64,000 nt of DNA. Source: Candidatus Scatosoma sp. GTDB lineage: Bacteria; Bacillota; Clostridia; Christensenellales; Borkfalkiaceae. Shown here in pieces: positions 1 through 21,048 of the stretch. The notes below the pieces were generated by a model. The model made no database searches. It worked only from the letters and a program-made list of their open reading frames with translations, and was not told the origin of the DNA. Each line of letters opens with the position of its first letter. Positions within the stretch are counted from its first letter, which is position 1. The position numbers and the translations under genes were made by a program. The stretch is taken from the NCBI GenBank assembly GCA_045539975.1, contig JAZQGK010000130.1, positions 1,919-65,918 on the forward strand, given 5' to 3'.

Positions 1-77
1 TACGCAAGGAGCGGTATCAACCCCAACACCGCCAACATCAACGAGCCGACGATGATTAAAGTTGTAACCCCTGACAT
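1..77 (-). CDS. Hypothetical small membrane protein, N-terminus only (CDS runs off the window)
   Basis: ATG at 77-75 preceded by AGGAGG (90-85, 7-nt spacer). The visible codons MSGVTTLIIVGSLMLAVLGLIPLLA form a hydrophobic helix. Absent from the ORF track because the window edge truncates it. Confidence 0.45.
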   Translation of the reverse strand, partial: MSGVTTLIIVGSLMLAVLGLIPLLA

Positions 78-1015
78 AGATCCGCCTCCTCATCTTCACC
101 GCTTTCTTCTGTCTGCTCCGCTTGTTCTTCCTGCAATGCGCGAAGGTCGTCGTTCCAATCCTTATGCTTAGGGATTAGTATCTTGCTTGCGATACCCTTC
201 TCAAAGAGCTTATCCGAGATTTTCTCATCGAACAATCTGCCCTTCTCATCGTTATCCAAACAAACGTAAACTTTCTTGATTTCAGGTTTATCCTTCAGCA
301 TTTGCCAAAGCACTCTGTCACCCACGCCGCAACACGCCGCATACGAATGCTGTTCCCAGCCTTCTTTGTTCATACTGATATACGAAAGCATATCGATGGG
401 CGCTTCAAAAATATACAGCCTATCGCTTTTGCCGTACCAGTGGAAACTGTATTCGGGAACGCTGTTTTCCGCATTCCCTCTAAACGAAGATTTATCACCT
501 GTTGCGCGTAAGCTTGCATGCATAATCTTTCCGTTTTTATCCTCGCCGACGAACACTGCATTATGGTAATCCGCCGACTCGTAAATCAACCCCTGCTTTA
601 CAAATGCCGATACCACGTCTTTATCCAAGCCTCGTTTTGTCAGCAAGTACGCATATACCCTGCGCATACTCTCGTTCCTGTTAGGCGGTTGAAAGTCCGT
701 TTTCTGTTTCGGCTTTTCAACAGGCTTTGGCTTTGACGTTTTCATTTCCCCTGCCGTACCGCCAAGCAAATATTCCATCGCCTCTTTGAAGTTTTTCCCA
801 AAGAACTCTTGCACGAATTTAATCGCATTGCCGCCCCGTTCTTCATAGTGATTGTACCACTGACATCCGCGAATGGTTATCCTGTCCGCGCCGTGCTTCC
901 ACTCGTACTCCGAACCCACGGCTTTGAGTTCTTCGCCTTGCCGCCTTAGCATATCCACGATATCCGTTTCGGCGGCTCTCTTAATCTCTTGTTCACTAAA
1001 TTTCTTGTACGCCAT
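56..1015 (-). CDS. Toprim-domain (DUF3991-like) primase-like protein of conjugative elements
   Basis: 319 aa. Toprim glutamate (FEAPIDMLS) and DxD motif (VYVCLDNDEKGR). Lies directly downstream of the relaxase, as in Firmicutes ICEs. Confidence 0.75.
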   Translation of the reverse strand: MAYKKFSEQEIKRAAETDIVDMLRRQGEELKAVGSEYEWKHGADRITIRGCQWYNHYEERGGNAIKFVQEFFGKNFKEAMEYLLGGTAGEMKTSKPKPVEKPKQKTDFQPPNRNESMRRVYAYLLTKRGLDKDVVSAFVKQGLIYESADYHNAVFVGEDKNGKIMHASLRATGDKSSFRGNAENSVPEYSFHWYGKSDRLYIFEAPIDMLSYISMNKEGWEQHSYAACCGVGDRVLWQMLKDKPEIKKVYVCLDNDEKGRLFDEKISDKLFEKGIASKILIPKHKDWNDDLRALQEEQAEQTEESGEDEEADLCQGLQL

Positions 1016-1031
1016 AATTCCTCCTTGCCTT

Positions 1032-3191
1032 TTATTGTTCTTGTTTTAAGCCCTGCGCGCGTTTCTTTTCATTGATACGCCGCAATTCTTTGCTGTCCGT
1101 CATACCGCGCTTGCCGTTTTTCAGCTTATCTCTCATGATCCTGCTCAGATGATAAAACAACCGCACTATCCCTGTTTTCATATACCTTGCTCGGTGTTCC
1201 CGTATGTCTTCCAAGGTCTGTTTTGCATATTCGTTGCCTTGCTCTGCAGCAGAATGCAGATACGCCATCGCCTTTTCTTCATCCCGTTCGACTCCTAAAC
1301 CGTACAGATATATCCTCGCAAGCTGATACTCCGCAAACGCATTCCCGTCCTTCGCCGCTTGCTCGAAATACTCAATGGCTTTTTCCGTATCCGTCAAGCC
1401 TTCTTCCGTAAGCCGAATCTTCCCTGCAAGATACGCCGCGCGCGGATTGCCTTTCCCCGCCGCGCGCTCTAAATATTCCAACGCTTTTTCCGCGTCCTTC
1501 TCTACAAGCTCGCCTTGGTATAAAAGTTTTCCGTACACGTACTCCGCAGGCAGCATACCCTTCTCCGCTGACTGTTTCAAAAACGTAACCGCATCCGCCG
1601 TGTTCTTTTTTAACTTCTCTCCATCGAGCAACGCTTTCCCCAACGTATACGCCGCGTACTTATTCCCTTTGTCTATCGCTCGGCGCAATAACTCTTCCGC
1701 TTTCACGCCGTCGAACGCAAAGTCTTCGCCTTTGAGCAGGGTTTTCCCAAGTAAATATTCCGCATACTCGTTGCCGTCCGACACCGAATCTTCCAACCAC
1801 TTTTGTGCTTGCGCCGTATCCTTCGGGATTTCTTTGCCCGTCAAATACATTTTTCCCAAGCGGTATTTCGCAACCGTATTTCCAAGGCTTGCAGACTCAA
1901 TCAAAAACTCTACCGCTTTCTTCGGATCGTACCCGTCGCTTTCTTCGACAAGCAAATCCTTAGCTTTGCGGTAGAGTTCCCACATCTTTTTTCTGTCCTT
2001 CCATGAAATTTTTACGCTTTCCGTTTCCGCGTCCGTCGGCTCCGACTCAGGCATATCCTTATCCAGCTCTCGTCGTTCCAACACAATGTTCATCGCTTCC
2101 TTGATAACGGCGTTGCGGATGGATTTAAATTCTTCGTTTTGCGACAGCGGAATTCGTTCTTCCATTCTCTTCGTGTACGTCTTTATAACTTCCTCTCTCT
2201 GCTCGTACCATAACTCATAGAGCTTTGCGATACGCTCGTCACTCGCCAGCCCGTCTACGATAGAACACACCAACGCTTTCACGTCAGGTTTAAGATATCC
2301 GTACACTTTTTTTCCTTTCGTCTTCGACAGCCTTTTCGCAAGCTGTACGAGCTTTTGTTCAAGCTGCGGATTGTCATACCCTTCTTCGTTGATCCGACGA
2401 ACGATTTCCGCAATCAAATTCTTGCCTGTGCCTCGCAGTTCGTCACGATGCTGCGTTTGTTTTTCATACACGCTGATAAGATCCTGGGCAAAGATATTCG
2501 CCGCGAACTTCGAACGCATATTGTGTACGCTCTGTTTTGTCAGGTAACCTTCCTTCGGATTCTTCGAATACACAATCAGATGCACGTGCGGATGATGTCC
2601 TTCGTTATGAAACGCGCCGTACCAACAGAAATTTTCAAGCGGGATTTTGAAGTTCTCCGCCATCATCGCCGCTTCCGAACGAAGCATATCCCGCCACCGG
2701 CTTCCGTTATCGTAGCCGAGCCGTTCCGCATCCTCCCTTCGAAGAGAAAGGATTACCGTCCATACGTTCCCGTCGTATTCGTTGAGTACAGCCGACACCG
2801 AATTCAAATTGACAGGCTCGCCGTCGTCCGTGAACAGTCCGTGCGCGCCGAACCGCTCTGCTCTCGGCCTCGTCGCAATATAGTCCGCATACGTTTTCTT
2901 ACCCATTGCCGTTTCAATATTTTCTTCCACGACACGGGAAATGAATTCGGATGCGTTCCACTTGGACGGATCCTTGCAGTAGTCATCGTACTCGTGCATG
3001 TCCTTCGCGTCAGGGAAATCTTGTAAGAGTTTCTTGATGATATCGCCTTGTTTGAGGGTAGCAGGTACGAGTTTAAACGACTCGTCTATCTTTTCCACGC
3101 CCTCTCTCGTAGCAATATATTTTGCGTAGCCGCCTATCTTTTTCAGCTCGTCGTTCTTCAGGTACTTGAACTTTGTTATTAGCCGCGCCAT
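1032..3191 (-). CDS. MobL/MobP-type conjugative relaxase fused to C-terminal Sel1-like repeats
   Basis: 719 aa. Histidine triad HNEGHHPHVHLIVYS in the N-terminal ~400 aa. The C-terminal ~250 aa holds about seven Sel1-type repeats (AEYLLGKTLL, AAYTLGKALL, AEYVYGKLLY, AAYLAGKIRL, AEYQLARIYLYG). Confidence 0.85.
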   Translation of the reverse strand: MARLITKFKYLKNDELKKIGGYAKYIATREGVEKIDESFKLVPATLKQGDIIKKLLQDFPDAKDMHEYDDYCKDPSKWNASEFISRVVEENIETAMGKKTYADYIATRPRAERFGAHGLFTDDGEPVNLNSVSAVLNEYDGNVWTVILSLRREDAERLGYDNGSRWRDMLRSEAAMMAENFKIPLENFCWYGAFHNEGHHPHVHLIVYSKNPKEGYLTKQSVHNMRSKFAANIFAQDLISVYEKQTQHRDELRGTGKNLIAEIVRRINEEGYDNPQLEQKLVQLAKRLSKTKGKKVYGYLKPDVKALVCSIVDGLASDERIAKLYELWYEQREEVIKTYTKRMEERIPLSQNEEFKSIRNAVIKEAMNIVLERRELDKDMPESEPTDAETESVKISWKDRKKMWELYRKAKDLLVEESDGYDPKKAVEFLIESASLGNTVAKYRLGKMYLTGKEIPKDTAQAQKWLEDSVSDGNEYAEYLLGKTLLKGEDFAFDGVKAEELLRRAIDKGNKYAAYTLGKALLDGEKLKKNTADAVTFLKQSAEKGMLPAEYVYGKLLYQGELVEKDAEKALEYLERAAGKGNPRAAYLAGKIRLTEEGLTDTEKAIEYFEQAAKDGNAFAEYQLARIYLYGLGVERDEEKAMAYLHSAAEQGNEYAKQTLEDIREHRARYMKTGIVRLFYHLSRIMRDKLKNGKRGMTDSKELRRINEKKRAQGLKQEQ

Positions 3192-3613
3192 TCAGTTCCT
3201 TTCTGCCAGTCGAGCGCGTCTTCAAAACCAAACGAGCCGTTTAAGCGTTTCACTTCTTTCACGCATTCGCCGCGCAACCTTTCCAACGACACTTGGTCGA
3301 TATCCAAGTTAATCGCAAGGATGTTCATCATCAACGCCATCTCCACCGCCAGCTTGAACAGCACTCGGCCCTGCTTGTTCTCGCTCTCCGCCACGATTCC
3401 TTTCAAGGTCGACAGTACGATATGCGGAAGGTATTCCTTGTTGTCGTTAGACGAAAGATACCCAACGTAAAAATCTACCGCCTTTTCCACGAGTTCGCTC
3501 TTGGTTAGACAGTTCGCCTTTTTATACCAATCGTCTATCTTTTGCAAGGTTTCTTTTTTTGCCCATAAAGCGAACCTTTTCTTATCTTCTTGCTCTGCTT
3601 TCTTTTCTGTCAC
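3179..3613 (-). CDS. Relaxosome accessory protein, ribbon-helix-helix type (MobC-like role)
   Basis: 144 aa. N-terminal RHH pattern KKRFALWAKKETLQKIDDWY...LVEKAVDFYV. Overlaps the relaxase start by 13 nt and sits next to the candidate oriT. Confidence 0.6.
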   Translation of the reverse strand: MTEKKAEQEDKKRFALWAKKETLQKIDDWYKKANCLTKSELVEKAVDFYVGYLSSNDNKEYLPHIVLSTLKGIVAESENKQGRVLFKLAVEMALMMNILAINLDIDQVSLERLRGECVKEVKRLNGSFGFEDALDWQKGTEWRG

Positions 3614-3629
3614 AATTTCCTCCTTTCTT

Positions 3630-3815
3630 CCTTAACCCACCCCGTAACCCACTCGTTTTCCCTTACAACACCGCATATTCAGCCTTCCGCAACCCACTCC
3701 TTGACACAACACCCCGTTTTACAACCCACTCGGCTCAAATCGCTGAATCCCTTGAAACAGCGGGCGTTGCACGCTGTTGTGAACTGCGTTTGGGGTGTCT
3801 ACAACCCAAACGCTT
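3630..3815. promoter_or_regulatory. Candidate oriT (iterated AACCCAC motifs plus hairpin)
   Basis: Lies in a 360-bp ORF-free gap upstream of the RHH-relaxase operon. AACCCAC occurs at 3634, 3646, 3691 and 3723, with variant AACCCAA at 3803. An imperfect hairpin AACAGCG-N9-CGCTGTT spans 3756-3778. Confidence 0.5.
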
Positions 3816-3974
3816 TCACCTGCTTATTTTCTACCCTATGCCACCGCGCGACAATAGCCTGAATCTTGCGTTTTTACACTCGCGCACAAAGGTTTGAATT
3901 TCGCCTTGTTTTGCCCCGTCGGGTACTTCTGCCACCCGCTTGGAATCGTCGCAAACAGGCGGTATTTTCGCCCT

Positions 3975-4631
3975 TTAAGGCGGTGTTAATCCTAACGCTA
4001 CTTGGTCCAAATCTTCGCCTTCCAGGTTACTGCGGAATATCTGCTCTCGCTCTTGTTCCGTCAAGCCGACTGCATCTTCGGCGTTTTCCACCGCTTTCGT
4101 TAAGGTATATAGGTCGTAGGCTTTCCAAGTTTCACAGCTCGGCTCTAACACTTGAACGTTTTCTTCATATAAATCGAAAGTCAACACCGCCGTAATAAAC
4201 GGAGTGTTTTTGATAGAACTGCACAAGACCTCAAACACCGATTCGTCCAACGAGCTTTCCGCACCAAAACATCTTTGTCCAATTGTGTCTACCGTGTATT
4301 GTTTTAAGTCTTCAGACTTACTCGCTTCTACATAATTTTTAGCAATCGTGAAAAAGTTTTCGCCACGCCGCGAGATAAATGCATATTCCTCGAACTCATC
4401 TCGGATACGCACTACGGCGAATTGTTTTTCTTTTAATAATTCCCCCAAGTCATCCGCATCGATTTGCTTTTCAATTTCTTTGCGTTGCGCTTCGGGAATA
4501 AGTTCTTGATACCATGCCTCCGCTTTCGCTTGGAGCTGCTCGTCGAAATTATTTCCGCCGCGTTCGAGAGCTTCTCGCATCGCGGCGTACTTGCGGTAGT
4601 GAATAGGAATTTTCAATTCTTTATTTGCCAT
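3975..4631 (-). CDS. Hypothetical protein (acidic, 218 aa), first ORF next to candidate oriT
   Basis: Long ORF in the operon frame and strand. No motif recognised. Confidence 0.6.
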   Translation of the reverse strand: MANKELKIPIHYRKYAAMREALERGGNNFDEQLQAKAEAWYQELIPEAQRKEIEKQIDADDLGELLKEKQFAVVRIRDEFEEYAFISRRGENFFTIAKNYVEASKSEDLKQYTVDTIGQRCFGAESSLDESVFEVLCSSIKNTPFITAVLTFDLYEENVQVLEPSCETWKAYDLYTLTKAVENAEDAVGLTEQEREQIFRSNLEGEDLDQVALGLTPP

Positions 4632-4878
4632 CCGTTACCTCCTCGTCCGCGCCTGCGGCGATAGCAGAAGATATAACACCTTTCTTTACTGTATTCTTAC
4701 CGCCGTTCCCTGCTCGTAGCGAAAGATATTCCCTCACCCCTGCAGGTACAGTTTTCGTGTACAAACTTTCCATGGCTTTTTCCACCTCGCCTTCCACCGT
4801 TTGTCCTTTCTGCTCCAGATACACTTTCAATGCCGACAGCTTTTCTTCGTCATAGCTTACCGTAATATTTTTCTTCAT
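4621..4878 (-). CDS. Hypothetical protein (85 aa)
   Basis: ORF overlaps the next gene by 11 nt (translational coupling). No motif recognised. Confidence 0.55.
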   Translation of the reverse strand: MKKNITVSYDEEKLSALKVYLEQKGQTVEGEVEKAMESLYTKTVPAGVREYLSLRAGNGGKNTVKKGVISSAIAAGADEEVTDGK

Positions 4879-4890
4879 ACTTCCTCCTTC

Positions 4891-5223
4891 TTACATAGAT
4901 TGCATCGGTGTCAACACCAACACGTCGTCCTGTTCTTCCAACTCATAGTGACCTGGATAATTCCTCGCCACTTGCGGCGGGCAATATAAATGGCACGCAA
5001 AACAGCTTTTGATGATACCATGTCCGCGTTCATCCTGTTTTAACGCAAGCACGCCATGCTCTTTATCCACGCCCCATACCCATTTGCATTCCATTAGAAA
5101 CGGAAATTTCTTCAAGGCTTTTTGACTTACGTAGGCAGGTGCGCCTTTGTAAATTGCGACATCCGTTCGGCCACGCGTTACGCCTGCGCCATACTTAAAA
5201 TTGTATTTCTTTTTCTCTGCCAT
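4891..5223 (-). CDS. Hypothetical protein (110 aa) with Cys/His cluster
   Basis: ORF in the operon. Contains CFACHLYC plus nearby His residues. No family recognised. Confidence 0.55.
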   Translation of the reverse strand: MAEKKKYNFKYGAGVTRGRTDVAIYKGAPAYVSQKALKKFPFLMECKWVWGVDKEHGVLALKQDERGHGIIKSCFACHLYCPPQVARNYPGHYELEEQDDVLVLTPMQSM

Positions 5224-5232
5224 CTTTTACTC

Positions 5233-6291
5233 CTACATTTCACCGAGCTTCAACCCGTTTTTCTGCCCCGTCCATTCCTGTTCATCATATACACAGTCCG
5301 TTGTGTCGCAGTCCTCAATGTCCGTGCGATGAAATTTCGTCTTTTCTAAACAGCTCTCCCGTAAAACACTATTGTAAAAATGACAATCCCAGAATGCTGT
5401 TTTTGTAAGGTTGCTTGATGTCATATCTGCACGACTTAAATCGCAATTAGAAAATTTCGCACCCGTAAAATCCGAGTCTATTGCCGTCATTTCCATACAC
5501 TCGGTTTTTATAATTCTTGTTCCCTTAAAAGACGAAGCGTTCACGTTCGCACCGTTCATTCTTGAATCTATAATTTTTGCATTATCAAATATCATATTTT
5601 CAAGCCATCTATCCGACATTTCCAAATTGCGCAATAAACAGTTTGAAAAATCCGCCTGTTCTCCGCTGCCGTTATCTAACCATAACAAATGCTTGGCATA
5701 GATAAGCTCAAATTCTTTTTGTGTGATTACTTTTAAATGGCTATCATCTTCTTCATAAGCAAATTTAGGCGCAACTACTATCCGTACTATATCATCGTCT
5801 TGTCCTGACATATTAATTTCAGGTCGCTCTGCTAACATGGAAATAAATACGTCCATATTAAAAGGTTCTTTATCGTATAACTCAGACTCAGGGAAACTGT
5901 ATTGACCTTGTTTCTGATAACGTAACGCCTTTTCTACTTGCTCGTCTACCGCCTCCACCATATTTTTATTTAATTTCGTCAACGACGGATATTTTTCCTG
6001 TTGTACGATTGCTTTTGCATAAGGTAAATACGCCGTATGACGAGGATACGAATATCCTTCCGATATTACGAGAATCCCGTCTTCTTGACCTTTCCCCACC
6101 ACAAGCAAACACCGAGCTATACCGCTTTCGTCTACTCGGTATTTATCTGAATTTTTTGAAATAAAATCGTAATCCTCGTTCATATGATTACAAAAATTTG
6201 CAAATTCTTCCGTGGATAGCTTCACCACATCTTCTATTGTAAACTCTTGTGTTCTTTGCTCCAATGGTATACGACTAAATTCTATTTTCAT
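5233..6291 (-). CDS. Pentapeptide-repeat protein with unknown N-terminal domain
   Basis: 352 aa. From about aa 213 to 330 there are continuous A(D/N)LXX-type pentapeptide repeats (ADFSNCLLRNLEMSD...FTGAKFSNCDLSRADMTSSNLTKTAF...). Confidence 0.8.
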   Translation of the reverse strand: MKIEFSRIPLEQRTQEFTIEDVVKLSTEEFANFCNHMNEDYDFISKNSDKYRVDESGIARCLLVVGKGQEDGILVISEGYSYPRHTAYLPYAKAIVQQEKYPSLTKLNKNMVEAVDEQVEKALRYQKQGQYSFPESELYDKEPFNMDVFISMLAERPEINMSGQDDDIVRIVVAPKFAYEEDDSHLKVITQKEFELIYAKHLLWLDNGSGEQADFSNCLLRNLEMSDRWLENMIFDNAKIIDSRMNGANVNASSFKGTRIIKTECMEMTAIDSDFTGAKFSNCDLSRADMTSSNLTKTAFWDCHFYNSVLRESCLEKTKFHRTDIEDCDTTDCVYDEQEWTGQKNGLKLGEM

Positions 6292-6306
6292 TGTTGCTTT
6301 TCCCTC

Positions 6307-7137
6307 CTAATTATAATTTTCATATTGATAAAAACGGGGATACTGGAATATAAACGCAGGCGTTTTCCATACGCTCCACAGCTCCCGCGTCAGCGAATTT
6401 TGGTGTTTGACAATTGCAGGTACCCCCGCAAGCGAAAGTTGCAAATACGTCATGTGTACGCAACGAATATCTATATCACTACACTCGATAAAACATTTTT
6501 GAGTATAGTTGATTCCGTAATCGTTCTTCAACACATCAAGCGCCGCTATCATCATTCCACCCCCACCGCAACACGGATCGCATAAGGTCAACACCCCTTT
6601 CTTTTCCGCCTGTGCTATCACTTCTGGTCCTATCGCTGCTTTCGCCATAAACTGCGAAATGTGATACGGCGTAAAAAATTGCCCCGTATTCTTGTTCCCT
6701 TGATTGCATCTCATAAATAGGTCCCCAAGATAATCCCGAAACACGCCGTTATCATATACGACAGATGATAAAAGCGCGTATATCTTTCCGAATATCTCGG
6801 TCATCAATTCGCGCTCTTTGGGTTCGTATTTATTTATAATTCGCTGATAGCGTTCTTCACGCTCTACCTGCTGTATTAAATCCACCGTGTTAGATATCGA
6901 TATCGCACCGCACTCAAATACATCCGATATCAGTTGATTCGTATCCACTCGATAGGTTGCAGACTTTATCCGTTTCATTATCTCATCCACCGTTGGCACG
7001 GCATAAGGACATAGATTCTTTTCTTCCCTTTTTTCTGCCACAGCTACAATCGGTTCAGGTATGTGCGGAATCTCCACCAATTGCGGTTTTTCAGCTATAA
7101 TATCGAAAATAGACAGTTGATTGCTCGATTTTTTCAT
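6307..7137 (-). CDS. HsdM/gamma-class N6-methyltransferase-like protein lacking catalytic motif IV
   Basis: Motif X-like GQFFTPYHIS and motif I LCDPCCGGGGM are present. The protein ends about 70 aa later with no (N/D/S)PP(F/Y/W). Start chosen at MKKSSNQ (RBS AGGGGG); the ORF track allows 7173. Confidence 0.7.
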   Translation of the reverse strand: MKKSSNQLSIFDIIAEKPQLVEIPHIPEPIVAVAEKREEKNLCPYAVPTVDEIMKRIKSATYRVDTNQLISDVFECGAISISNTVDLIQQVEREERYQRIINKYEPKERELMTEIFGKIYALLSSVVYDNGVFRDYLGDLFMRCNQGNKNTGQFFTPYHISQFMAKAAIGPEVIAQAEKKGVLTLCDPCCGGGGMMIAALDVLKNDYGINYTQKCFIECSDIDIRCVHMTYLQLSLAGVPAIVKHQNSLTRELWSVWKTPAFIFQYPRFYQYENYN

Positions 7138-7299
7138 TGGTTGCCCCCTGTATGGTATTCTTACCACAAACATACCCGAACCGTTGCCGTAAGTCCAGCG
7201 AATATGCCCCGAACGCTAAAACAATTCCTTAAAAATTGCCATCAACACGTCCACGACAATGGAATTCCTTGCTTGCTTATTTCATCTACTCGCCATACG

Positions 7300-7986
7300 T
7301 CAGCCCATGTTCATGCCCGTATCTTCGGACATGATGTCCTGATGATATTCTTGGCAATAATCTTCCACAAACTGCTTTCTGCCTTCTTTGCTAAAAAGGT
7401 TTGCATCCAAATCGCCGATAAACGTTTGATACAAGTCCTCTAAAATATGTCCCTCGTCTTTACACAAGGCTTTATAAACTTTATCAGAGAACTCGTGTTC
7501 TTCATATATCGCGTCGTGAATCTCCGTTTTAACCGTTGTTTCATAGCTATGCGAATACACTTCTTCGGGCGTACCTTGCAACAAATTTAATTCATACAAT
7601 TCGTACTCGTTGTGTACGCCGTCTAAAACTCTCTGCTTGCAGTCAAAATCGTCCATAAGCTCGCCATACATCGACTCGCAATAACCCGTTATCGTTTCTT
7701 CTACCTCTTTTGCCGTAGAAACGGAAGCGAAATCTTCATCCAGATGGTTGAACAGATTATTCAATATACTGCCGCGTTCTTCGTACAACGCTCGATATAT
7801 CTTTTTCGGGAAATTCACTGCGCCGCAAAAACCGTATTCGTACAGCGTGTTTTTCATATTGATTTCATAGGCTTTCCTGTAAACCGATACCGAGTCAAGC
7901 GCAACCGTATCGCCGTAAAATTGATTAAACTCGGCCTGCACGCTTTCCTTGACTTCTTTCTCGTAATCAATTGCTTTTTCGTCCAT
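7300..7986 (-). CDS. Accessory protein with two copies of a ~100-aa repeat module (paralogue 3 of 3; possibly DUF3848-like)
   Basis: 228 aa. The module IDYEKEV..SVQAEF...VY..SYE...KVYKALY.E.G.IL..L occurs twice and is shared with the two upstream genes. Confidence 0.65.
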   Translation of the reverse strand: MDEKAIDYEKEVKESVQAEFNQFYGDTVALDSVSVYRKAYEINMKNTLYEYGFCGAVNFPKKIYRALYEERGSILNNLFNHLDEDFASVSTAKEVEETITGYCESMYGELMDDFDCKQRVLDGVHNEYELYELNLLQGTPEEVYSHSYETTVKTEIHDAIYEEHEFSDKVYKALCKDEGHILEDLYQTFIGDLDANLFSKEGRKQFVEDYCQEYHQDIMSEDTGMNMG

Positions 7987-7987
7987 A

Positions 7988-8806
7988 TCAGCCTCCCATC
8001 ACAGGTACAGGGCTTTCATCTTCCTGTACAACTTCTTCGTCTTTTTCATTCATAATCTCACGGTGATAACGGTTGCAATAATCTTTAATGAAAAAAATTG
8101 TTCCCCCAGAGCTGTTTACGCTTGCCTCCGGCGATTCTATAAAATCCTGGTGCAATTCTTCCAGTATTTTGCCTCGCTCTTGATACAATGCTTTATAAAC
8201 TTTATCATCAAAATTCCATCCATCGCAAAGTGCGACATAGAATTCCGTTTTCGCCATTGATTCGTAGCTGTGCGCGTAGACTTCTTCAACTGTTCTGCTT
8301 AAAAGGTCCGCTTCGTATGCCTTGAATTCTTGCTCAACGCTTGCAATGACTTCGTGCTTATAATCGATTTCGGCATTGTCAGTCCCTCGACAATACACCG
8401 AATCAAATTCACGCGAGAGATCGATCCCGTACAGCTCTATTTCTTCTTGCGTCATACCGACTTCTATGTGCAGATCCCGAAATAATCCTTCATCGCTCGT
8501 TTGATGGTCAAGAAACCAACCTACAAACCCTTGCAACAGCTCTGTTTTTCTTTTTTCCGTTAATTGCAAATTTCCATCTCCCGTCAACAGTTCTTTTTCT
8601 ACTATCCTACCGTTTTTCAAAAAGAAATCGGACGTATTATCAAACCGAGAATCATCCGTCGTAATCTCAAAACCGTCAACTGCATCGCTATCCCGTAAAA
8701 CCACCGCATTTTTTACTTCTTCTTCCGTTATATTCGGGTGCTCGCCAGCGTCTATATCCATCTCTATCGTCAATCTTATTTTTGACTGTTGCTCTTTCTT
8801 ACTCAT
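7988..8806 (-). CDS. Accessory protein, paralogue 2 of 3
   Basis: Start moved to MSKKEQQ (ATG 8806, junction GGAGGCTGATATG). Shares two modules with the 8808-9575 gene and ends in the same tail QEDESPVPVMGG. Confidence 0.65.
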   Translation of the reverse strand: MSKKEQQSKIRLTIEMDIDAGEHPNITEEEVKNAVVLRDSDAVDGFEITTDDSRFDNTSDFFLKNGRIVEKELLTGDGNLQLTEKRKTELLQGFVGWFLDHQTSDEGLFRDLHIEVGMTQEEIELYGIDLSREFDSVYCRGTDNAEIDYKHEVIASVEQEFKAYEADLLSRTVEEVYAHSYESMAKTEFYVALCDGWNFDDKVYKALYQERGKILEELHQDFIESPEASVNSSGGTIFFIKDYCNRYHREIMNEKDEEVVQEDESPVPVMGG

Positions 8807-8807
8807 A

Positions 8808-9575
8808 TCAGCCTCCCATCGCAGGCACAGGGCTTTCATCTTCCTGCAGAGTTTCTTCGTCTTCCCCGTTCATAATTTCGGGATAGTTCTTTTCGCAATA
8901 CCTTTCGATAAATTCTTCTGCGTCCGTATTCGTTGTTACACTTGCGCTCGGATCCGCTTGATAGCCCTGAAAAAGTTTATACAAAATCTCCGCTTTTTCT
9001 TGATACAACGCTTTATACACCGCATCCGCATAAGAGCCTTCACATACCGCGTCTTTCAAGGAAGTAACAATGTGAATATCGTAAGAATCGTCAAAGACTT
9101 CCCCAGTAGTTCTCCCTGCCGTTTTATCGATTTTAAAGTCGATAAACTCTGCCTCTACACTTTTAATAACTTCCTTTTCGTAATCGATTTCAGTTTCTTC
9201 CGAGGCATCCCCAACGGCTGCATCGTGTTCGTCTTCCGTATGGTAGATGCTTGAATCGATAATATTCGCGCCTAACATTCCCAACACGTTTTCCGCCTTT
9301 TTCTCTGCCGAACAGCAATCGGGAGCATTCGCCATATACGCCGTCGCTTCCATAACGTCTTCGCCCGTAATCGTATCGATGGTTTCCTGCTCTTCTTTTT
9401 CGTGTTCACGCTCGTAATATTCGTCCAGGCTTTCAATATCGAACTCGTGCAGTTCTTCTTGCGTTAACCCAATGCTGTTTCGCAAAGTAAAGTATAAATC
9501 TTCATCGTTATTATGATGCTCAATCATCCAAGTGAGAAACTCGTCGATAATCTTTGTTTTTCTTTCTTCCGTCAT
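8808..9575 (-). CDS. Accessory protein, paralogue 1 of 3
   Basis: 255 aa. Modules FLTWMIEHHNNDEDLYFTLRNSIGLTQEEL and IDYEKEVIKSVEAEF...AVYKALYQEKAEIL. Tail QEDESPVPAMGG. Confidence 0.65.
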   Translation of the reverse strand: MTEERKTKIIDEFLTWMIEHHNNDEDLYFTLRNSIGLTQEELHEFDIESLDEYYEREHEKEEQETIDTITGEDVMEATAYMANAPDCCSAEKKAENVLGMLGANIIDSSIYHTEDEHDAAVGDASEETEIDYEKEVIKSVEAEFIDFKIDKTAGRTTGEVFDDSYDIHIVTSLKDAVCEGSYADAVYKALYQEKAEILYKLFQGYQADPSASVTTNTDAEEFIERYCEKNYPEIMNGEDEETLQEDESPVPAMGG

Positions 9576-9596
9576 TATATTTTTCCTCCAATTTTA

Positions 9597-10082
9597 TCAT
9601 TTATCGGTTACATGGGTGTCCCGAAATTCTTGTACAGCGTTTTGAAAATCTTCTGTTTTGATGTCCTTTCCAAACTCCGTATTCACCGCCGAGACGAGTT
9701 CTTCGTCCGTTTGGTCCTCCGTCGTAAAACAGCCTATGAGCCGTTCCACAAACCCGTCTTCTTCCGCCTCGTCGTGCAATGCAAATACGTAAAGCGTTTG
9801 CGCTTCTTCCACCTGCGTTTGCGTATAGCCTGCATTCAGCATTTCGTCTTCGATCTCTTGCACGACAACTTCCATTTTTGCCTGTTGCTCGTAGACTTTA
9901 TCAAACAGCCCGTCTGTGTTTATATCGATTCCGCCTGAAAAGATACCCAGCACTGCGATTATCGGCATTAGAAGCAGGAACAGCACGCCGAGGATTATCC
10001 CCAGCAGCCATTTTCTGCCTTTCTTGTCCGATACCAACGCAACCGCTATTTTCTTTATGATAGGAATAATGGGGGCAGCCAT
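9597..10082 (-). CDS. Conjugation-associated membrane protein (hypothetical)
   Basis: 161 aa. One TM helix (WLLGIILGVLFLLLMPIIAVLGIF) followed by an acidic soluble part. Its start overlaps the VirB4 stop (TAATG). Confidence 0.6.
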   Translation of the reverse strand: MAAPIIPIIKKIAVALVSDKKGRKWLLGIILGVLFLLLMPIIAVLGIFSGGIDINTDGLFDKVYEQQAKMEVVVQEIEDEMLNAGYTQTQVEEAQTLYVFALHDEAEEDGFVERLIGCFTTEDQTDEELVSAVNTEFGKDIKTEDFQNAVQEFRDTHVTDK

Positions 10083-11905
10083 TATCTTCCGCCCCCTTTC
10101 CCAAACAGAGCGAATTTATAGTCAGGCGCTCTTACTTGCAATAAATACCTTTCATTGCCGCAACGATATAAACAAGTACCGCGTTCGGGGTACTTGATAA
10201 GCTCGAATTCGCATTCTTCCAACTGCAACGCGTCCATATATTCCTTCGGATTGATTTGCCCTGCGTTGAACAGGAATTGGTGCGTCGGGATACTGAAAAG
10301 CGGTTTCGTGAACTCGCGGATTTCAGGCAATAAAAAATCTTCGATGTTTTGACTAGCCAGTATCACCGAAGATTCCTTTTTACGCACACGCTTCATTGCG
10401 TTGCGGATATATTCAATTGCCGTCAGATTTGTCAAAAATAGGTACAGTTCGTCGATGCTCGCCGCCGTATTCCCTACCCCCAAAAGCTGATTGCTCATAT
10501 ACGAAAGGATATTGAACAGCATTGCGTCCTTCAAACGCTTATTCGTATCAAGCAGTCCCTTCACGCCAAAGCATAAAAAATCACCGTCCGACACGTTCGT
10601 ATGCCCGTTAAAGTATTTACTTTCACTGCCGACGCACATAGAATTGATACCCAAGCAAACTTCCTGCAACGTCGTTTCCGTATACAAATACTTTCGCTTT
10701 TGGTCATACGTCATATATTCTTCTTCGCAGACGTGGTAAAACTCCTTCATCGTCGGATAATCCGTCGGCTTCAATTCCGCATAGTTCGTCGTGTCTGTGA
10801 TGCCAAACCTTGCGTACAGCTTCACGAGCAGAATTTCAATCGTATCTAAGTGTTCATCCGCAAAATCCTTATAGCAACGGAAAAAGTCCTTCAAGAACGC
10901 AATGTGCTGCGACAGCCTCGTCACCTTTCTAAACGCTTCGGGCGTATCCGCATCCACTTCTTCTAATCCGTCCGACCATACCTTCGGCTCTAACGGGTTT
11001 ATCTTGTATTCTCCGCCCATAAAATCAATATAGCAACCGCCAAGGTTCTCGCAAAGGTCCTTGTACTCGTCATCGGGATCGAGCACAATCACCCGCTTCC
11101 CCGATTCTCGGATATTCGTCAAAAGCAGTTTCATCAAATAGCTTTTGCCCTGACCGCTATTGCCTAATATCAGCACGTTGCTGTTCGTTTTATCGTCCGC
11201 GCGCTTATCCAAATCCACGAGAATATTCGTGCCAAACTTATCCCTGCCGATATACATCCCGTGTTCGTCTGTTTTACCAGAGAAACTGAACGGATACAGA
11301 TTTGCCGCTGAGCTTGACGGCAAGACTCTTTCAAACTGCGTTCCGAATTGATTCGTCCCCACGGGCAATACCGATAAAAAGCCTTCCTTTTGCCGTAAGG
11401 TCAGCCTATCTGCCGTGAGCCTTGAACGTGACAGTTCCATCTGCACCTCGTCTTGCAGTTCTTTCAGCTCGTCCAGGCTTTTCGCTTTCAGTTCAAGGAA
11501 TACCGAACAATGCAACAACGATTCTCGGCTTTGGCGCATATTCGCCAAAAGCTCGATTACGTCTTGCAAGTTCCCTTCCGCTTCGACAGCTTCGGTTACG
11601 TCGTTCCCCGTCGTTTTCATCTTGTTTTTCCGCGTGGCGTTCTGGATGATTTTTTTCTGTTCCATAGGCTCGACAAGTCTATGATAAATCCTAACCGTTA
11701 CGCCGTTCCTGTCCGCAATTCTCGCAAGGATTGCCTGTTCGTCCGTTGCAGGCGGATATTCCCTTATCGCCCAAGCGCATCTGTAGCTGTCGCCTACGAT
11801 ATAATGATCGACAAAAAACTTGATCGTACTCGGCGCGATACAGTCAAAAAAATCCTTCGTACGTATCAATTCCTGTTTCTCTGCCGATATCTGTTTCTTA
11901 GCCAT
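10082..11905 (-). CDS. virB4: VirB4-family conjugative transfer ATPase
   Basis: Walker A LILGNSGQGKSYLMK and Walker B-like SIDELYLFL. Start set at MAKKQIS (ATG 11905, RBS AGGAGG 9 nt upstream); the ORF-track start at 11929 is a TTG. Confidence 0.9.
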   Translation of the reverse strand: MAKKQISAEKQELIRTKDFFDCIAPSTIKFFVDHYIVGDSYRCAWAIREYPPATDEQAILARIADRNGVTVRIYHRLVEPMEQKKIIQNATRKNKMKTTGNDVTEAVEAEGNLQDVIELLANMRQSRESLLHCSVFLELKAKSLDELKELQDEVQMELSRSRLTADRLTLRQKEGFLSVLPVGTNQFGTQFERVLPSSSAANLYPFSFSGKTDEHGMYIGRDKFGTNILVDLDKRADDKTNSNVLILGNSGQGKSYLMKLLLTNIRESGKRVIVLDPDDEYKDLCENLGGCYIDFMGGEYKINPLEPKVWSDGLEEVDADTPEAFRKVTRLSQHIAFLKDFFRCYKDFADEHLDTIEILLVKLYARFGITDTTNYAELKPTDYPTMKEFYHVCEEEYMTYDQKRKYLYTETTLQEVCLGINSMCVGSESKYFNGHTNVSDGDFLCFGVKGLLDTNKRLKDAMLFNILSYMSNQLLGVGNTAASIDELYLFLTNLTAIEYIRNAMKRVRKKESSVILASQNIEDFLLPEIREFTKPLFSIPTHQFLFNAGQINPKEYMDALQLEECEFELIKYPERGTCLYRCGNERYLLQVRAPDYKFALFGKGGGR

Positions 11906-12494
11906 CCTCTTCTTCCTCCTTCCCATCAAAATACTGCGCGCCGTCTACGTCGGGGATCCGTTCGCCTTGAATGCTTGCGCCAAAGTATAACGCCATAAAA
12001 CGCTTGATTTCCCCTTTCGTCATCAGGTGCGAATCAAAGCCCTGTTCCGCGAGTGTTTTTTGAATCGTATTCGCATAGTTAAACACCTGCATCGGGTTCA
12101 TGTTCCTGCATCTTACGAAAAACAGAAACTGCCGAGAAGTAGACATTTCAAGCTGAATCTCGTTTAGAAACTTCAAGTCCTTACCAAGCAGTTTCTTGAT
12201 TTTAGGATTGGGTTCTTCCTCTCGTCTTCTCGCCAAATATGCCTTATTCTCGTCGAAACATTCCGACGAATCCAGGCATAAGATCCCGATATCGGAAATC
12301 GCCGACAATACCAAGGTCAACTGCCGCACCTTACTCTCTACCGCAGCAGAAGATAACACCGAAATATTGCTCGGCGTTACGTGAAAATACAGCATTTCTC
12401 CGCGCGACGTCACAACTCCGTATTCGCTGAACGTCTTAACTCCCAGGAGCGTTTGTACGCTTGCGCCGTTCTTATTCTTTTCTTTCTTTGCCAC
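11898..12494 (-). CDS. Conjugation protein, possibly a separately encoded VirB4 N-terminal-like domain
   Basis: 198 aa. Its stop overlaps the VirB4 ATG by 8 nt (ATGGCTAA). Together with the 607-aa VirB4 the total is about 800 aa, the usual Gram-positive VirB4 length. Confidence 0.5.
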   Translation of the reverse strand: MAKKEKNKNGASVQTLLGVKTFSEYGVVTSRGEMLYFHVTPSNISVLSSAAVESKVRQLTLVLSAISDIGILCLDSSECFDENKAYLARRREEEPNPKIKKLLGKDLKFLNEIQLEMSTSRQFLFFVRCRNMNPMQVFNYANTIQKTLAEQGFDSHLMTKGEIKRFMALYFGASIQGERIPDVDGAQYFDGKEEEEDG

Positions 12495-13616: not shown

Positions 13617-14210
13617 CTATTTCCTTCCTTTCTTAAATACAAGCCAATAACTATGTGTTTTCGCCACACAGTTTTGTTGCTTTGCGTCCTTTTGTAATTT
13701 GCTGTCCGTCGATTTGATTATAATATCACGAAGCGTAAAGCCTATTTCATTTGCGTAATTGATAATATCGTTGTGCGTGCAATAAAATCGATGTTCCGAC
13801 ATATCTTGGCATTTGAATAATAAATATCCTCCAACCTTTAATACGCGCATAAACTGCTTTAGGCTCTGCGTATACATTTTCATCAATTCGGCATAGCTTT
13901 TGAAATACGAAAACCGATTGCTGATTTTATCGTTATTCGGAGCTTTTCTTCCGCGAAATAAAAAAGGCGGATCGAAAACAATCGTTTCAAACGACTCGTC
14001 TTCAATTCCGTCCATTTTCGTTGTATCTATCTGCATTACGTCATCATACTGCGGATATAAATCGCTTTTATAACGCGGTGGCTTCAACCCTTTCCAAAAC
14101 ACACCTTTGCTATAGGTGCAGTCCAAATCGTACCACTTCCCTTTTAAATGGATATCGTTGATTGCCGTTAAAATTTCCGCATCTGTTCTAAATACACTAA
14201 AATATCTCAC
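13617..14210 (-). CDS. Small putative DNA methyltransferase (DPPF motif)
   Basis: 197 aa. Catalytic-type motif IVFDPPFLF preceded about 60 aa earlier by a motif-I-like WYDLDCTYSKG, with LKVGGYLLFKCQD downstream. Target base not determinable by eye. Confidence 0.6.
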   Translation of the reverse strand: MRYFSVFRTDAEILTAINDIHLKGKWYDLDCTYSKGVFWKGLKPPRYKSDLYPQYDDVMQIDTTKMDGIEDESFETIVFDPPFLFRGRKAPNNDKISNRFSYFKSYAELMKMYTQSLKQFMRVLKVGGYLLFKCQDMSEHRFYCTHNDIINYANEIGFTLRDIIIKSTDSKLQKDAKQQNCVAKTHSYWLVFKKGRK

Positions 14211-17026: not shown

Positions 17027-17287
17027 TTACTCGCATTTGTTATAGCAGGGACACTTCTCACAGTCCCCGTCGCAGTCCGTTTCATTGATCGGACAGTTCT
17101 CGCAATCCCCATTGCATACGATATCCTTTTTATCCGTTACCGCTTCAATAAGAATTGCGCCTTTCGTCGCAGAAATCTGCAACAAGTCGCCTTCGCTGAT
17201 ACCCGATTCTTCCATTGCCTCTACAGGCATTGCGAAGAAAATAAAATTACCTTTTTTTACCGTCTTATCTTGCATGATATAATGCAC
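17027..17287 (-). CDS. AbrB-like protein with Cys-rich C-terminal tail
   Basis: 86 aa. FAMPVEAMEESGISEGDLLQISATKGAILIE is AbrB-like. The last 29 aa contain 9 Cys (CNGDCENCPINETDCDGDCEKCPCYNKCE). Confidence 0.6.
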   Translation of the reverse strand: MHYIMQDKTVKKGNFIFFAMPVEAMEESGISEGDLLQISATKGAILIEAVTDKKDIVCNGDCENCPINETDCDGDCEKCPCYNKCE

Positions 17288-18243
17288 TCCCTTAATATTT
17301 TTTCAAAATCGAAGTTTTCTTCTTGTGCTTCGAAGAAGGTTAATTGCAACGGCTTCTCCCGTTCCCTTTCGTATAGGTCATAGTTGCCTATGAGCAATTC
17401 TTTAAACTCTTTTCCTGCGTCGTATCTTTGCGCCATAGAATGCACGCGTGAAAAGTCAAAGATTGAAAAGCCTTGGTACAGTTCCCTAATTTCGGGACAG
17501 TCGTTGTAGGACAACAAAAACCTGCCTTTTATGTTCTGCAAAGTGTCTCGAAGCCGTACATGGTCCTGCCAATTGAACCCTACCGCATACATATCCTCCG
17601 TAGAAAAATACGGCGGATCTGCGTAGAAAAAGCTGTCGGGACGGTCATAGTGTTTTATCAAGGCTTCAAAGTCTTGGTTCTCGACTATCACACTCGACAT
17701 TCGCCTTTCCAGCTCTTTAATAAGGCCGAATATCTTGCGGATATCCATCGGCTGTGCCGCAAACGATTTGCAACCGCTTGAATAACTGTACCTCAAAAGT
17801 TTCATAAACAGCGCCGCCCTGCGCACGTCGTAATCTTGCGTTATCCGCGTCCGCAGTTCTTGCAATTCCTTCGCTTCAGGCGGGGGGAACATGATTTCCG
17901 TCAGGAATAGTTCCTCGCCAAAATACTCGTCCGTAAACGTTTCGTACTCGAAAAATTTCTTGATAGCGTTGAAGTCTTCTCGGCTGTTGAGATTACAAAA
18001 TCCCAGCTCTCGAATCGTCGCCATCGTCCTCTCTTTCATGCATCGAAACAGGTTGACGAGATTTCTATCGAAATCGTTGTACACTTCAAACGGCGGGGGC
18101 TTGGGATTGCCAAGCAGTACGCTCCCGCTGCCGCCGAATACGTCGATAAATCGTCCGTACTTTAATGGAAACACGGCATATAAAATATGGAGAATGGACG
18201 ACTTATTCCCCACTCGTGTCACCGGAGTTTTAATAGTTACCAC
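17257..18243 (-). CDS. dam: DNA adenine methyltransferase, Dam (D12) family
   Basis: 328 aa. Motifs VGNKSS, DVFGGSGSV (motif I) and YADPPYF (motif IV). Confidence 0.9.
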   Translation of the reverse strand: MVTIKTPVTRVGNKSSILHILYAVFPLKYGRFIDVFGGSGSVLLGNPKPPPFEVYNDFDRNLVNLFRCMKERTMATIRELGFCNLNSREDFNAIKKFFEYETFTDEYFGEELFLTEIMFPPPEAKELQELRTRITQDYDVRRAALFMKLLRYSYSSGCKSFAAQPMDIRKIFGLIKELERRMSSVIVENQDFEALIKHYDRPDSFFYADPPYFSTEDMYAVGFNWQDHVRLRDTLQNIKGRFLLSYNDCPEIRELYQGFSIFDFSRVHSMAQRYDAGKEFKELLIGNYDLYEREREKPLQLTFFEAQEENFDFEKILRECIISCKIRR

Positions 18244-18334
18244 CTCTCTTTCCCATGCGCGGCAACAGCCGTCCCAAAAAAGAAAAGCGGCGCAACCTTC
18301 CCTTTTGGAACGATTGACACCGCTTGGGGTTTAT

Positions 18335-18454
18335 TTAGTCCTTTTTACTTTGCCTGTGCGTGACGAGATGTTTTACAACAGCAAAACCGATTGCCGTTCC
18401 CGCGCAACACCCGCCGAGAAGAAATCCAATCACAAAACTGAATCCTACCGTCAT
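18335..18454 (-). CDS. Small hydrophobic peptide (39 aa), below the ORF-track cut-off
   Basis: ATG 18454 with AGGAGG 6 nt upstream. Translation MTVGFSFVIGFLLGGCCAGTAIGFAVVKHLVTHRQSKKD gives one TM helix plus a basic tail. TAA at 18337-18335. Confidence 0.5.
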   Translation of the reverse strand: MTVGFSFVIGFLLGGCCAGTAIGFAVVKHLVTHRQSKKD

Positions 18455-18472
18455 ACTCTTTACCTCCTATTC

Positions 18473-18934
18473 TTATTGATTTATAACAAAACCCGAACCT
18501 TCATTTTCTTCAGGTTCGGGTTCTGTGTCCGTTGTTTCTATGCCCATATACTGATTGTAGGCTTTTTCATATTCCGCATAATTCTCCGCGCCGTGTTCCT
18601 TTAAGAACTTTTCATCGAATATCCATAAGGGATACCGACAGTGCGCGCCTGTTTTTGTCAAGCCAGTATCCTGCGCGATTCCCGCTTTTAGTAACTGGTC
18701 TGCAAACCTGCAATTATTCGTGTCGATATACGCCGCATTTTTAAGTCCGATGAACTCACCGAAGTTCGCTGTCAACCGTGCAAAAGGTGTAGGATATCCA
18801 CCGTCTTGTTCGTCCAGGTCTATGGCGATACCATACAATTCCTTGCCCATAATCGCGTCCTTGACCGTGTACAGTTCCACACGGGGCTGTACCTTTACCT
18901 TTCCGCCGTATTGCGTATTTATTTCGTAAATCAT
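18473..18934 (-). CDS. ICE accessory protein (DUF4313-like, from memory)
   Basis: 153 aa. Contains LTANFGEFI...AYIDTNNC...YPLWIF; acidic C-terminus. Confidence 0.5.
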   Translation of the reverse strand: MIYEINTQYGGKVKVQPRVELYTVKDAIMGKELYGIAIDLDEQDGGYPTPFARLTANFGEFIGLKNAAYIDTNNCRFADQLLKAGIAQDTGLTKTGAHCRYPLWIFDEKFLKEHGAENYAEYEKAYNQYMGIETTDTEPEPEENEGSGFVINQ

Positions 18935-21038: not shown

Positions 21039-21048
21039 ACTTTTTCTC

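Follow-up and report, generated by a model that had tools for sequence, protein, structure and literature searches.

A predicted origin of transfer in a MOBL integrated conjugative element of gut Clostridia is flanked by backbone genes and by a swap slot with a truncated HsdM-like protein

Which genes of a conjugative element enter the recipient first, and do they act on the defences met there? This question is raised by five open reading frames (ORFs) at positions 3975 to 7173 of a 64,000-nucleotide stretch of Candidatus Scatosoma sp. DNA (contig JAZQGK010000130.1), the whole of which is called the window here. Positions 1 to ~29.3 kb of the window are an integrated conjugative element (ICE) of the MOBL type from gut Clostridia, and the ORFs, named A to E, lie beside its candidate origin of transfer (oriT). 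A preliminary description had regarded all five as one candidate anti-defence cassette in the leading region. We prefer, with modest confidence, a divided reading, in which the block is the oriT-proximal end of the ICE half that enters first and is composed of backbone genes (A, B and C) and a swap slot (D and E) with likely anti-restriction cargo.

The five minus-strand ORFs (218, 85, 110, 352 and 288 aa) were recovered with the coordinates and sizes given previously, and each has a Shine-Dalgarno motif and conserved homologues, so that they are regarded as genuine genes rather than chance ORFs. The start of E almost certainly lies at the ATG at 7137 (276 aa) and not at 7173 (288 aa), judging from the AGGGGG upstream of the former, the homologues, which all begin there (MKK), and the lack of a ribosome-binding site at the ATG at 7173.

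3975 to 4631, minus strand: A, 218-aa acidic protein, net charge -19, first gene on the predicted leading side
4621 to 4878, minus strand: B, 85-aa DUF6103 protein (PF19598, 43.5 bits against a cut-off of 24.2), overlapping A by 11 nt
4891 to 5223, minus strand: C, 110-aa basic protein of a very small family
5233 to 6291, minus strand: D, 352-aa acidic mosaic protein, net charge -23, with a DUF6329/phrog_21303 N-domain, a linker and ~26 pentapeptide repeats
6307 to 7137, minus strand: E, 276-aa truncated HsdM-like pseudo-methyltransferase, with motifs X, I, II and III kept, NPPF changed to KTPAF, and neither strands beta5 to beta7 nor a target-recognition domain

To the other side of the block lie the intergenic gap and the genes for the relaxase and its probable partners.

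56 to 1015, minus strand: DUF3991/Toprim primase (PF13154, 74.7 bits; PF13155, 64.6 bits), on the predicted lagging side of oriT
1032 to 3191, minus strand: MOBL-family relaxase with C-terminal Sel1 repeats (PF18555 MobL, 108.9 bits over residues 1 to 400, against a threshold of 28.5; Sel1, 124.7 bits)
3179 to 3613, minus strand: MobC-like relaxosome accessory protein, 144 aa, between oriT and the relaxase gene
3614 to 3974, no strand assigned: predicted oriT region, the whole 360-bp intergenic gap, alignable across eight related elements
3633 to 3732, plus strand: direct repeats AACCCAC(T/C)C (GGGTTG on the minus strand), families D1 to D3
3756 to 3778, no strand assigned: hairpin IR2, 10-nt arms, 90% complementary
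3786 to 3813, no strand assigned: hairpin IR1, 13-nt arms, 92% complementary, immediately 5' of the core on the plus strand
3811 to 3826, plus strand: conserved core CGCTTTCACCTGCTTA, proposed nic region, the best-conserved block in 8/8 oriTs

The relaxase is assigned to MOBL by its PF18555 score and by the histidine motif HNEGHHPHVH in its translation. The gap was aligned with its counterparts in seven related elements, which have relaxases of 46 to 93% identity. Over the eight elements, 84.5% of the positions of IR1 and IR2 together were paired, versus 37 to 46% with slid partners; six pairs were changed on both sides, and the observed score was reached by none of 500 shuffles. Compensatory double changes were found in 4 of 11 pairs of IR1 and 2 of 9 pairs of IR2, with 85% of cells paired in the latter. 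The core, with the consensus CGCTTTC(A/T)CCTGCTT, follows directly 3' of IR1 on the plus strand, and GGGTTG units, which are probably binding sites of accessory proteins, were kept in all eight oriTs. Moreover, in a sliding scan of single-stranded DNA (ssDNA) over the first 30 kb, the gap ranked among the most structured stretches (z -2.5 to -2.9). With its pair of covarying hairpins, its direct repeats and the conserved core, 3614 to 3974 is convincing, by sequence, as the oriT of the adjacent MOBL relaxase. The preliminary description had supposed a nick between 3630 and 3815, and the oriT anatomy does lie in this gap, but the conserved nic-candidate core (3811 to 3826) sits at the upper edge of that interval.

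The direction of transfer can be approached from the same anatomy. On the transferred strand (T-strand) of MOBF, MOBP and MOBQ systems, hairpins generally precede nic, and on the plus strand of the window both hairpins stand 5' of the core. The same arrangement, with the hairpins 5' of the core, is present in the MOBL plasmid pLS20 (PMC5313138). A further indication comes from the mosaic structure of the element. The DNA from the primase gene through the MobC-like gene, the repeats and both hairpins is 92 to 99% identical to that of one related element (L001) and 64 to 90% identical to that of another (L002), while from 3811-3818 upward identity switches to 94 to 100% with L002. Thus, the element is a recombinant, whose junction at 3811-3818 coincides with the predicted nic, exactly at the boundary of hairpin and core, as would be expected of an exchange at nic. 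Since the match to L001 on the relaxase side includes hairpins and repeats, the relaxase-specific recognition elements appear to travel with the relaxase. In addition, the gene order, with leading genes, oriT and relaxosome genes all on one strand, parallels that of F-type plasmids. From hairpin position, the pLS20 precedent and the junction, it is most likely that the plus strand is nicked at ~3811-3826, with the DNA from 3975 upward leading and the relaxase gene last. The relaxase, helped by MobC, would nick the plus strand within this core just 3' of IR2 and IR1, and plus-strand DNA from there upward would lead. A concrete oriT with a nic interval of a few bases is thereby provided.

Neither strand is labelled directly by sequence, and an alternative is the opposite polarity, in which the minus strand would be nicked, the relaxase, primase and coupling-protein genes would enter first, and 3975-7173 would be the lagging end. 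This would put the hairpins 3' of nic on the transferred strand, where they would enter first, contrary to pLS20 and likewise to MOBF, MOBP and MOBQ systems. The relaxase-specific hairpins, moreover, go with the relaxase side of the mosaic junction, and the gene order mirrors that of F-type plasmids, in which the side corresponding to 3975-7173 leads. We consider the opposite polarity the least probable of the alternatives weighed here and proceed with a plus-strand nick and a leading block.

Is this block one functional unit? Comparison with related elements indicated otherwise. The order DUF6103-A-oriT-MobC-MobL was kept in L001, L002, L010, L011 and L012, that is, in every relative with A, including a full ICE (L012, with A 52% identical) and L010/L011 (A 47% identical), among which is an apparently T4SS-less element (T4SS, type IV secretion system). 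The MobC-like gene of the relatives always stood between oriT and the MobL relaxase gene (47 to 99% identity), although its 144-aa product in the window had no Pfam family match, and the primase gene after the relaxase was kept in L001 to L005 and L012. B is 100% identical in L001 and L002, whose relaxases differ by 7 to 17%, and is also present in the distant L003 to L005; C was kept in close relatives. By synteny, A and B are backbone genes fixed to oriT-MobC-relaxase, with C held less strictly. In L003 to L005 (~7100-9200), an amidoligase (PF12224), a gamma-glutamyl cyclotransferase-like GGACT protein and a 160-aa ORF replace A between DUF6103 and oriT.

The single cassette of the preliminary description, expressed early from the incoming single strand, does not fit this pattern: A, B and, more loosely, C are locked to oriT-MobC-relaxase in the relatives that have A, and D and E occupy a swap slot. 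A and B are not regarded as anti-defence cargo because anti-defence cargo diversifies, whereas these two remain with the relaxosome module even where the T4SS is apparently missing, and B does not vary across elements with divergent relaxases. The predicted polarity and the orientation relative to the T-strand would suit a cassette, as would the strong acidity of A and D; conserved leading genes such as psiB and ssb do exist in F and I plasmids, and many uncharacterised leading-region families are suspected of anti-defence roles (PMC11541004). Nevertheless, for none of the five was homology to an anti-defence protein, or a matching fold, detected; the search for ssDNA promoter signals was negative, and the genes are packed tightly behind T4SS genes. 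One dedicated cassette of all five ORFs is therefore, in our judgment, very unlikely, and the division into backbone and swap slot is preferred.

What the backbone proteins do can be approached from their families. The preliminary description had listed A, B and C as small proteins with no recognisable motif, which held for A and C, neither having a Pfam family, but not for B, which is a DUF6103 protein of a family with 158 clusters. The homologues of A form 27 clusters, which all come from Clostridia or metagenomes, and in this family the N-terminal 60 residues are nearly invariant. The profile and structure work suggested there for the small ORFs gave a confident AlphaFold2 (AF2) model of A (pLDDT 82.6; a coil, then helices 12-23 and 29-44, an arrangement that would suit a ribbon-helix-helix protein but does not diagnose one), but no Foldseek match of this model above TM 0.4 in PDB or BFVD, and profile searches of PDB returned nothing for A, B or C. 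A had no match among annotated plasmids. For C, an exhaustive HMMER search found 15 representatives among 1.84 billion, none annotated, and neither Pfam nor PADLOC gave a match; in L010/L011 its domain also occurs as a fusion, at the C-terminal end of a 332-aa protein encoded immediately upstream of DUF6103. Between the N-terminus of A and DUF6103 there is a weak collinear alignment (hhalign E value 0.002, probability 13.5%), and DUF6103 aligns weakly from its first residue with CopG (hhalign P 0.003, probability 10.6%, with an approximate query); for ribbon-helix-helix homology of A and B, no match was found among Pfam or PDB sequences. A, B and C may be small DNA-binding factors, possibly ribbon-helix-helix-like, serving relaxosome function, regulation or establishment, perhaps via the conserved GGGTTG repeats, and such a role for A and B is an attractive idea beside a repeat-rich oriT.

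The nearest studied parallel is the relaxosome of pLS20, which is composed of oriT_LS20, the ribbon-helix-helix proteins Aux1 and Aux2, and Rel_LS20 (PMC5313138, PMC5675868). Both systems have a MOBL relaxase, an oriT with inverted and direct repeats within co-oriented conjugation genes, and small accessory genes beside oriT. The window departs from pLS20 in the Sel1 repeats of its relaxase and in an unrelated oriT sequence; a single accessory gene separates oriT from the relaxase gene, and A and B, whose ribbon-helix-helix status is putative, are found across oriT from it.

D and E behave differently from this backbone. In L001, L002 and L012, the slot held a C5 methyltransferase and a 165-aa ORF, with or without a helix-turn-helix protein. 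D was absent from L001 and L012, and the pentapeptide protein of L002 lacked the DUF6329 N-domain. By this comparison D and E are variable cargo of a swap slot, occupied in sister elements by an orphan C5 methyltransferase, and the slot is likely to be one for anti-restriction cargo. In a survey of leading regions, orphan methyltransferases and anti-defence genes that are read from the T-strand were found to be enriched (Samuel et al. 2024, PMC11541004). The split into backbone and swappable cargo narrows the anti-defence candidates of the block from five genes to two.

D was correctly described earlier as a pentapeptide-repeat protein (Pentapeptide PF00805, 48.4 bits versus a cut-off of 20.2; Pentapeptide_4, 44.3 versus 38). 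It resembles Qnr, MfpA and McbG in its ~26 pentapeptide units and net acidic charge, but differs from them in a 200-residue N-terminal extension with DUF6329 and in family scores far below cut-off: the NCBIfam equivalogs gave 24.8 bits versus 240 for Qnr and 22.2 versus 360 for MfpA, and matches to HetL and HalA likewise stayed far below the family cut-offs. Among annotated plasmids only generic pentapeptide matches were found. As an acidic pentapeptide-repeat beta-helix, D may act as a DNA mimic, a role that is plausible by analogy; the ArdA fusions of the element are matched in acidity by A, D and the neighbouring proteins F, G and H.

E is the more informative of the two. It matches PF02384 (N6_Mtase) partially, over profile positions 18 to 135 of 311, at 42 bits versus a cut-off of 20.4, and is a member of phrog_5696 (E value 1.6e-63). 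In structure it comes closest to PacII M and type I HsdM subunits, and the best PADLOC models are type I methyltransferases, matched in the first half only (~positions 132-262 of 569). The AF2 model (pLDDT 77) is composed of a disordered head, an HsdM_N-like helical domain and four Rossmann strands only, and model and profile indicate that a complete seven-stranded Rossmann fold, a target-recognition part and an HsdS-binding C-terminus are all missing. The S-adenosylmethionine (SAM)-binding motifs, namely, X (GQFFTP), I (DPCCGGGG) and acidic II (SDID), are present and invariant or nearly so. In agreement with the earlier description of a methyltransferase-like protein without its catalytic motif, E lacks motif IV, (N/D)PP(Y/F/W): KTPAF occupies model residues 254-259, and the N/D is absent family-wide. 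Instead, (K/R)TPA(F/Y) is conserved after beta4 where NPPF/Y belongs, and the protein stops 14 residues later. These features define a family of at least 968 clusters with lengths of 245 to 296 aa, in which GQFFTP, DxCxGxGG, DID and the TP are invariant and the HQ(N/D) strand is also kept. On this basis, E should still bind SAM and should be unable to methylate.

The family extends well beyond Clostridia. Homologues of E were detected by tblastn (E values 1e-18 to 2e-48) in 2120 plasmid records, of which 1483 are conjugative, with Klebsiella, Enterobacter, Acinetobacter and Pseudomonas foremost. The proteobacterial homologues show the same truncation and the invariant TP. Two F-type plasmids were inspected for location (L013, L014: Klebsiella and Providencia). 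In the Klebsiella IncFII plasmid, the leading region reads ParB-like, psiB, psiA, hok, ..., 'N-6 DNA methylase', antirestriction, SLT, [oriT], traM, traJ, traY, and the homologue of the Providencia F-like plasmid stands in the same arrangement. Compared with such 'N-6 DNA methylase' proteins (WP_088365332 of Klebsiella IncFII, NZ_CP021946; WP_249890922 of Providencia pP14-114), E is 26 to 43% identical by alignment and 28 to 42% by tblastn over 78 to 96% of its length. The plasmid proteins are 251 to 297 aa long, with one of 333 aa that has an acidic tail, and share with E motifs X, I and II, the invariant TP for NPP and an end shortly after beta4; E differs in its Gram-positive ICE context and in a 40-residue disordered N-terminal extension. 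The family of truncated HsdM-like proteins is widespread, in the leading region where inspected, uncharacterised and probably non-catalytic, and the annotation of its members as active 'N-6 DNA methylase' is probably wrong. Within the searchable literature, no paper was found that notes the missing catalytic motif or tests the function of the family. 'N-6 DNA methylase' families, which may or may not be the E family, are included in the supplementary family table of Samuel et al.

Elsewhere, in Acinetobacter, Burkholderia and Pseudomonas plasmids and in the phage FP_Taranis, the homologue occurs among genes for ParB-like, Lar, H-NS, SSB and methyltransferase proteins. In L015, L016 and L018 (Burkholderia and Acinetobacter plasmids and FP_Taranis), it is 0 to 1 gene from a ParB-like gene, and the ParB-like neighbours of the homologues include PRTRC ParB, ParA/ParB and a 519-aa ParB-like protein. 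This recurrent neighbour hints at a functional link. Moreover, a 62%-identical homologue was found in L006 to L009 (6805-16377), ~1.2 kb inside the end of another mobile element, which has PcfK/MutS_I, PcfJ and YpsA-like genes, occupies four different chromosomal insertion sites and ends beside a type I HsdR gene.

Three other views of E were considered and rejected. It is not a pseudogene or frameshift remnant, given that the truncation is family-wide and that D starts 15 nt past the E stop with its own ribosome-binding site. A split methyltransferase, formed by E and the 197-aa FDPPF protein (13617-14210), was dropped because the FDPPF protein has full-length plasmid homologues and is absent from L012. 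Nor is E a homologue of M.EcoGIX/M.BceJIII, single-strand-specific leading-region methyltransferases that are proposed to protect against restriction and belong to the beta class with an active DPPY, the change of which to APPA abolishes function (PMC7736820). E resembles them as a short orphan methyltransferase-type gene in what is predicted to be an early-transferred region, oriented for expression from the entering strand, but it is of the gamma class (HsdM-like), lacks the motif and probably does not methylate.

A function can be proposed for the family, albeit tentatively. In the recipient, E may act as a decoy or sponge against SAM-dependent systems of the HsdM type. The E family would then be a cross-phylum anti-restriction class that amounts to half of a type I M subunit, catalytically dead yet able to bind SAM, produced early in the recipient and poisoning HsdM complexes, an idea that we put forward as a possibility and believe less likely than not to hold in this full form. 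The poisoning would proceed by subunit mimicry or by local SAM capture, with type I restriction-modification (R-M) and possibly BREX or type IIG systems as targets, and this mechanism is equally tentative. If the idea is true, the relatives of E in Klebsiella IncFII, Providencia and ~2100 plasmid records are not orphan methyltransferases, and surveys miscount them as active; an anti-restriction decoy of this kind would also constitute a widespread plasmid-establishment mechanism and a possible target for curbing the spread of resistance plasmids. Whatever its function, the family connects ICEs of Clostridia and phages with the leading regions of clinically important Klebsiella IncFII plasmids.

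Several observations weigh against our reading of the block as a leading end with anti-restriction cargo. The genes do point toward oriT, as the preliminary description stated, but the minus-strand orientation is common to ~47 kb of genes including the chromosomal flank and is nothing special to the block. Intergenic gaps are 0 to 15 nt, except for 162 nt before E. A scan for sigma-70 promoters and terminators found fewer sites than shuffles did, and plus-strand folds revealed no ssDNA hairpin promoter at 3814-3975 or 7160-7310 (z 0.0 and +0.8). The recognisable anti-restriction genes lie at 13.6 to 26 kb, 10 to 22 kb further on. A to E gave no match to known anti-defence families, the only PADLOC matches being the HsdM-like ones of E. 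For A and B, the profile matches behind the ribbon-helix-helix idea are weak (hhalign P ~0.002-0.003, probability 10-14%). With regard to D, two other pentapeptide proteins, McbG and QnrB, failed to inhibit BREX when tested (PMC7261183).

The expression signals deserve particular weight. The sliding scan, which covered the first 30 kb, picked out the oriT hairpins but no Frpo-like element. Frpo/ssi-like promoters are not universal in leading regions, but their absence here weakens the case for one. Tight gene spacing suggests co-transcription with the T4SS genes, and, as no ssDNA promoter was found, early expression in the recipient is no more likely than co-transcription in the donor with the T4SS operon. 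Early expression from the entering strand is thus unsupported by the sequence.

In another interpretation, the block would be the mere tail of a donor conjugation operon, with A, B and C as relaxosome or regulatory genes and nothing acting on recipient defences; D and E would be neutral or decaying, E a dead methyltransferase remnant and D a gyrase-protecting Qnr-like protein. Operon-like spacing, the lack of internal promoter or terminator signals, the synteny of A and B with oriT-MobC-relaxase, the loss of motif IV in E and the weak Qnr and MfpA matches of D all agree with it, and the leading genes of pLS20 are conjugation genes, with its establishment genes clustered elsewhere (PMC5313138, PMC8708921). 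A decaying remnant, however, does not account for the conservation of length, SAM-binding motifs and replacement TP in E from Clostridia to Proteobacteria, over the clusters and plasmid records counted above. In F-type leading regions, furthermore, psiB, psiA and antirestriction genes accompany the homologues of E, and the same slot holds orphan C5 methyltransferases in sister elements. We judge the operon tail unlikely, although less so than the single cassette, and retain the reading of a leading end with backbone and cargo.

Under this reading, the locus can be compared with the leading regions of F-type and IncI plasmids, which carry ardA, psiB, ssb and orphan methyltransferases (PMC11541004). 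In both, the genes lie beside oriT on the side opposite to the relaxase gene and all point to oriT, with the transferred strand as template (here only if the plus strand is the T-strand), a methyltransferase-like gene stands a few genes from oriT, and ArdA or methyltransferases occur within the first ~30 ORFs. In the window, orphan methyltransferases and ArdA do occur within that range, but none among A to E. Unlike those plasmids, this is an integrated MOBL element of Clostridia, in which ssb, psiB and Frpo-like ssDNA promoters were not found, anti-restriction genes are mixed among T4SS genes, and the three oriT-nearest genes are a family-specific backbone. Leading regions have been studied mainly in proteobacterial plasmids, and the layout of leading genes, oriT and relaxosome genes is here extended to a MOBL ICE of gut Clostridia.

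The remainder of the element provides the context of these genes. Long ORFs from 56 to ~47 kb are essentially all on the minus strand, and the gene order runs primase, MobL relaxase, MobC-like, the 360-bp gap, A to E, F/G/H, a membrane protein and VirB4. Beyond VirB4 stand TrbL and DUF3852, with the FDPPF methyltransferase, DUF3849, a Dam-like methyltransferase, two ArdA-domain fusions and a C5 methyltransferase interleaved.

7300 to 9575, minus strand: F, G and H, three paralogous very acidic proteins, net charge -30, -34 and -48
9597 to 10082, minus strand: I, 161-aa membrane protein, homologous to the N-terminal part of CHAP-domain proteins in related ICEs
10082 to 11929, minus strand: VirB4-type T4SS ATPase (P-loop_TraG, DUF87, AAA_10)
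13617 to 14210, minus strand: FDPPF methyltransferase, 197 aa, between TrbL and a conserved 132-aa gene
17257 to 18243, minus strand: Dam-like D12 methyltransferase
19494 to 21191, minus strand: ArdA+LPD28 fusion
22022 to 23314, minus strand: C5 methyltransferase
25020 to 26153, minus strand: second ArdA-domain protein
29368 to 29452, minus strand: tRNA-Leu(CAG), beside 29201-29360, the most structured ssDNA of the first 30 kb (z -4.2)

From ~29.5 kb onward housekeeping genes follow (S51 peptidase, MscS, TsaC/Sua5, DnaB). The window is chromosomal, the ICE adjoins the tRNA-Leu gene, and megablast of positions 1-12000 against PLSDB gave no plasmid match. The nearest relatives are metagenome-assembled genomes of Clostridia, recovered from the colon of sheep and the rectum of roe deer. 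At ~29226-29250 there is a tRNA-like GGTTCAAGTCC fragment, and 29201-29452, with the tRNA-Leu gene, is probably where the ICE integrated and has its right end; within the window, no integrase was found on the tRNA-Leu side.

VirB4 is the first clear mating-pore gene on the leading side and is 78 to 98% identical in relatives. A dense anti-restriction arsenal is present at 17257-26153, 13 to 22 kb from oriT and on the same strand, where DUF4313 and DUF4314 genes also occur. The FDPPF methyltransferase was absent at the corresponding place in L012, and small plasmids of Shigella, Vibrio and E. coli carry its homologues, as genes of ~200 aa annotated 'DNA methyltransferase'.

I aligns only with the N-terminal part of 305- to 306-aa homologues in distant ICEs (L004, 5050-5970; L005, 5603-6520). 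The L004 homologue has a Pfam CHAP domain, and this cell-wall hydrolase domain is missing from I and in L002 and L012. F, G and H stand between the cargo slot and the T4SS genes, with a copy number that differs among relatives. Against the 30-bit cut-off of PF12959 (DUF3848), F passes with 47.9 bits, G falls just below with 28.3 and H has no match. The three are paralogues with shuffled modules, and the N-terminal module of G and H recurs in a 332-aa protein (P0150), where it is fused to the C110 domain. In addition, the motif AY(L/M)ANAPDCCS is common to H and to a 76-aa ORF of L003 (3069-3299) and L005.

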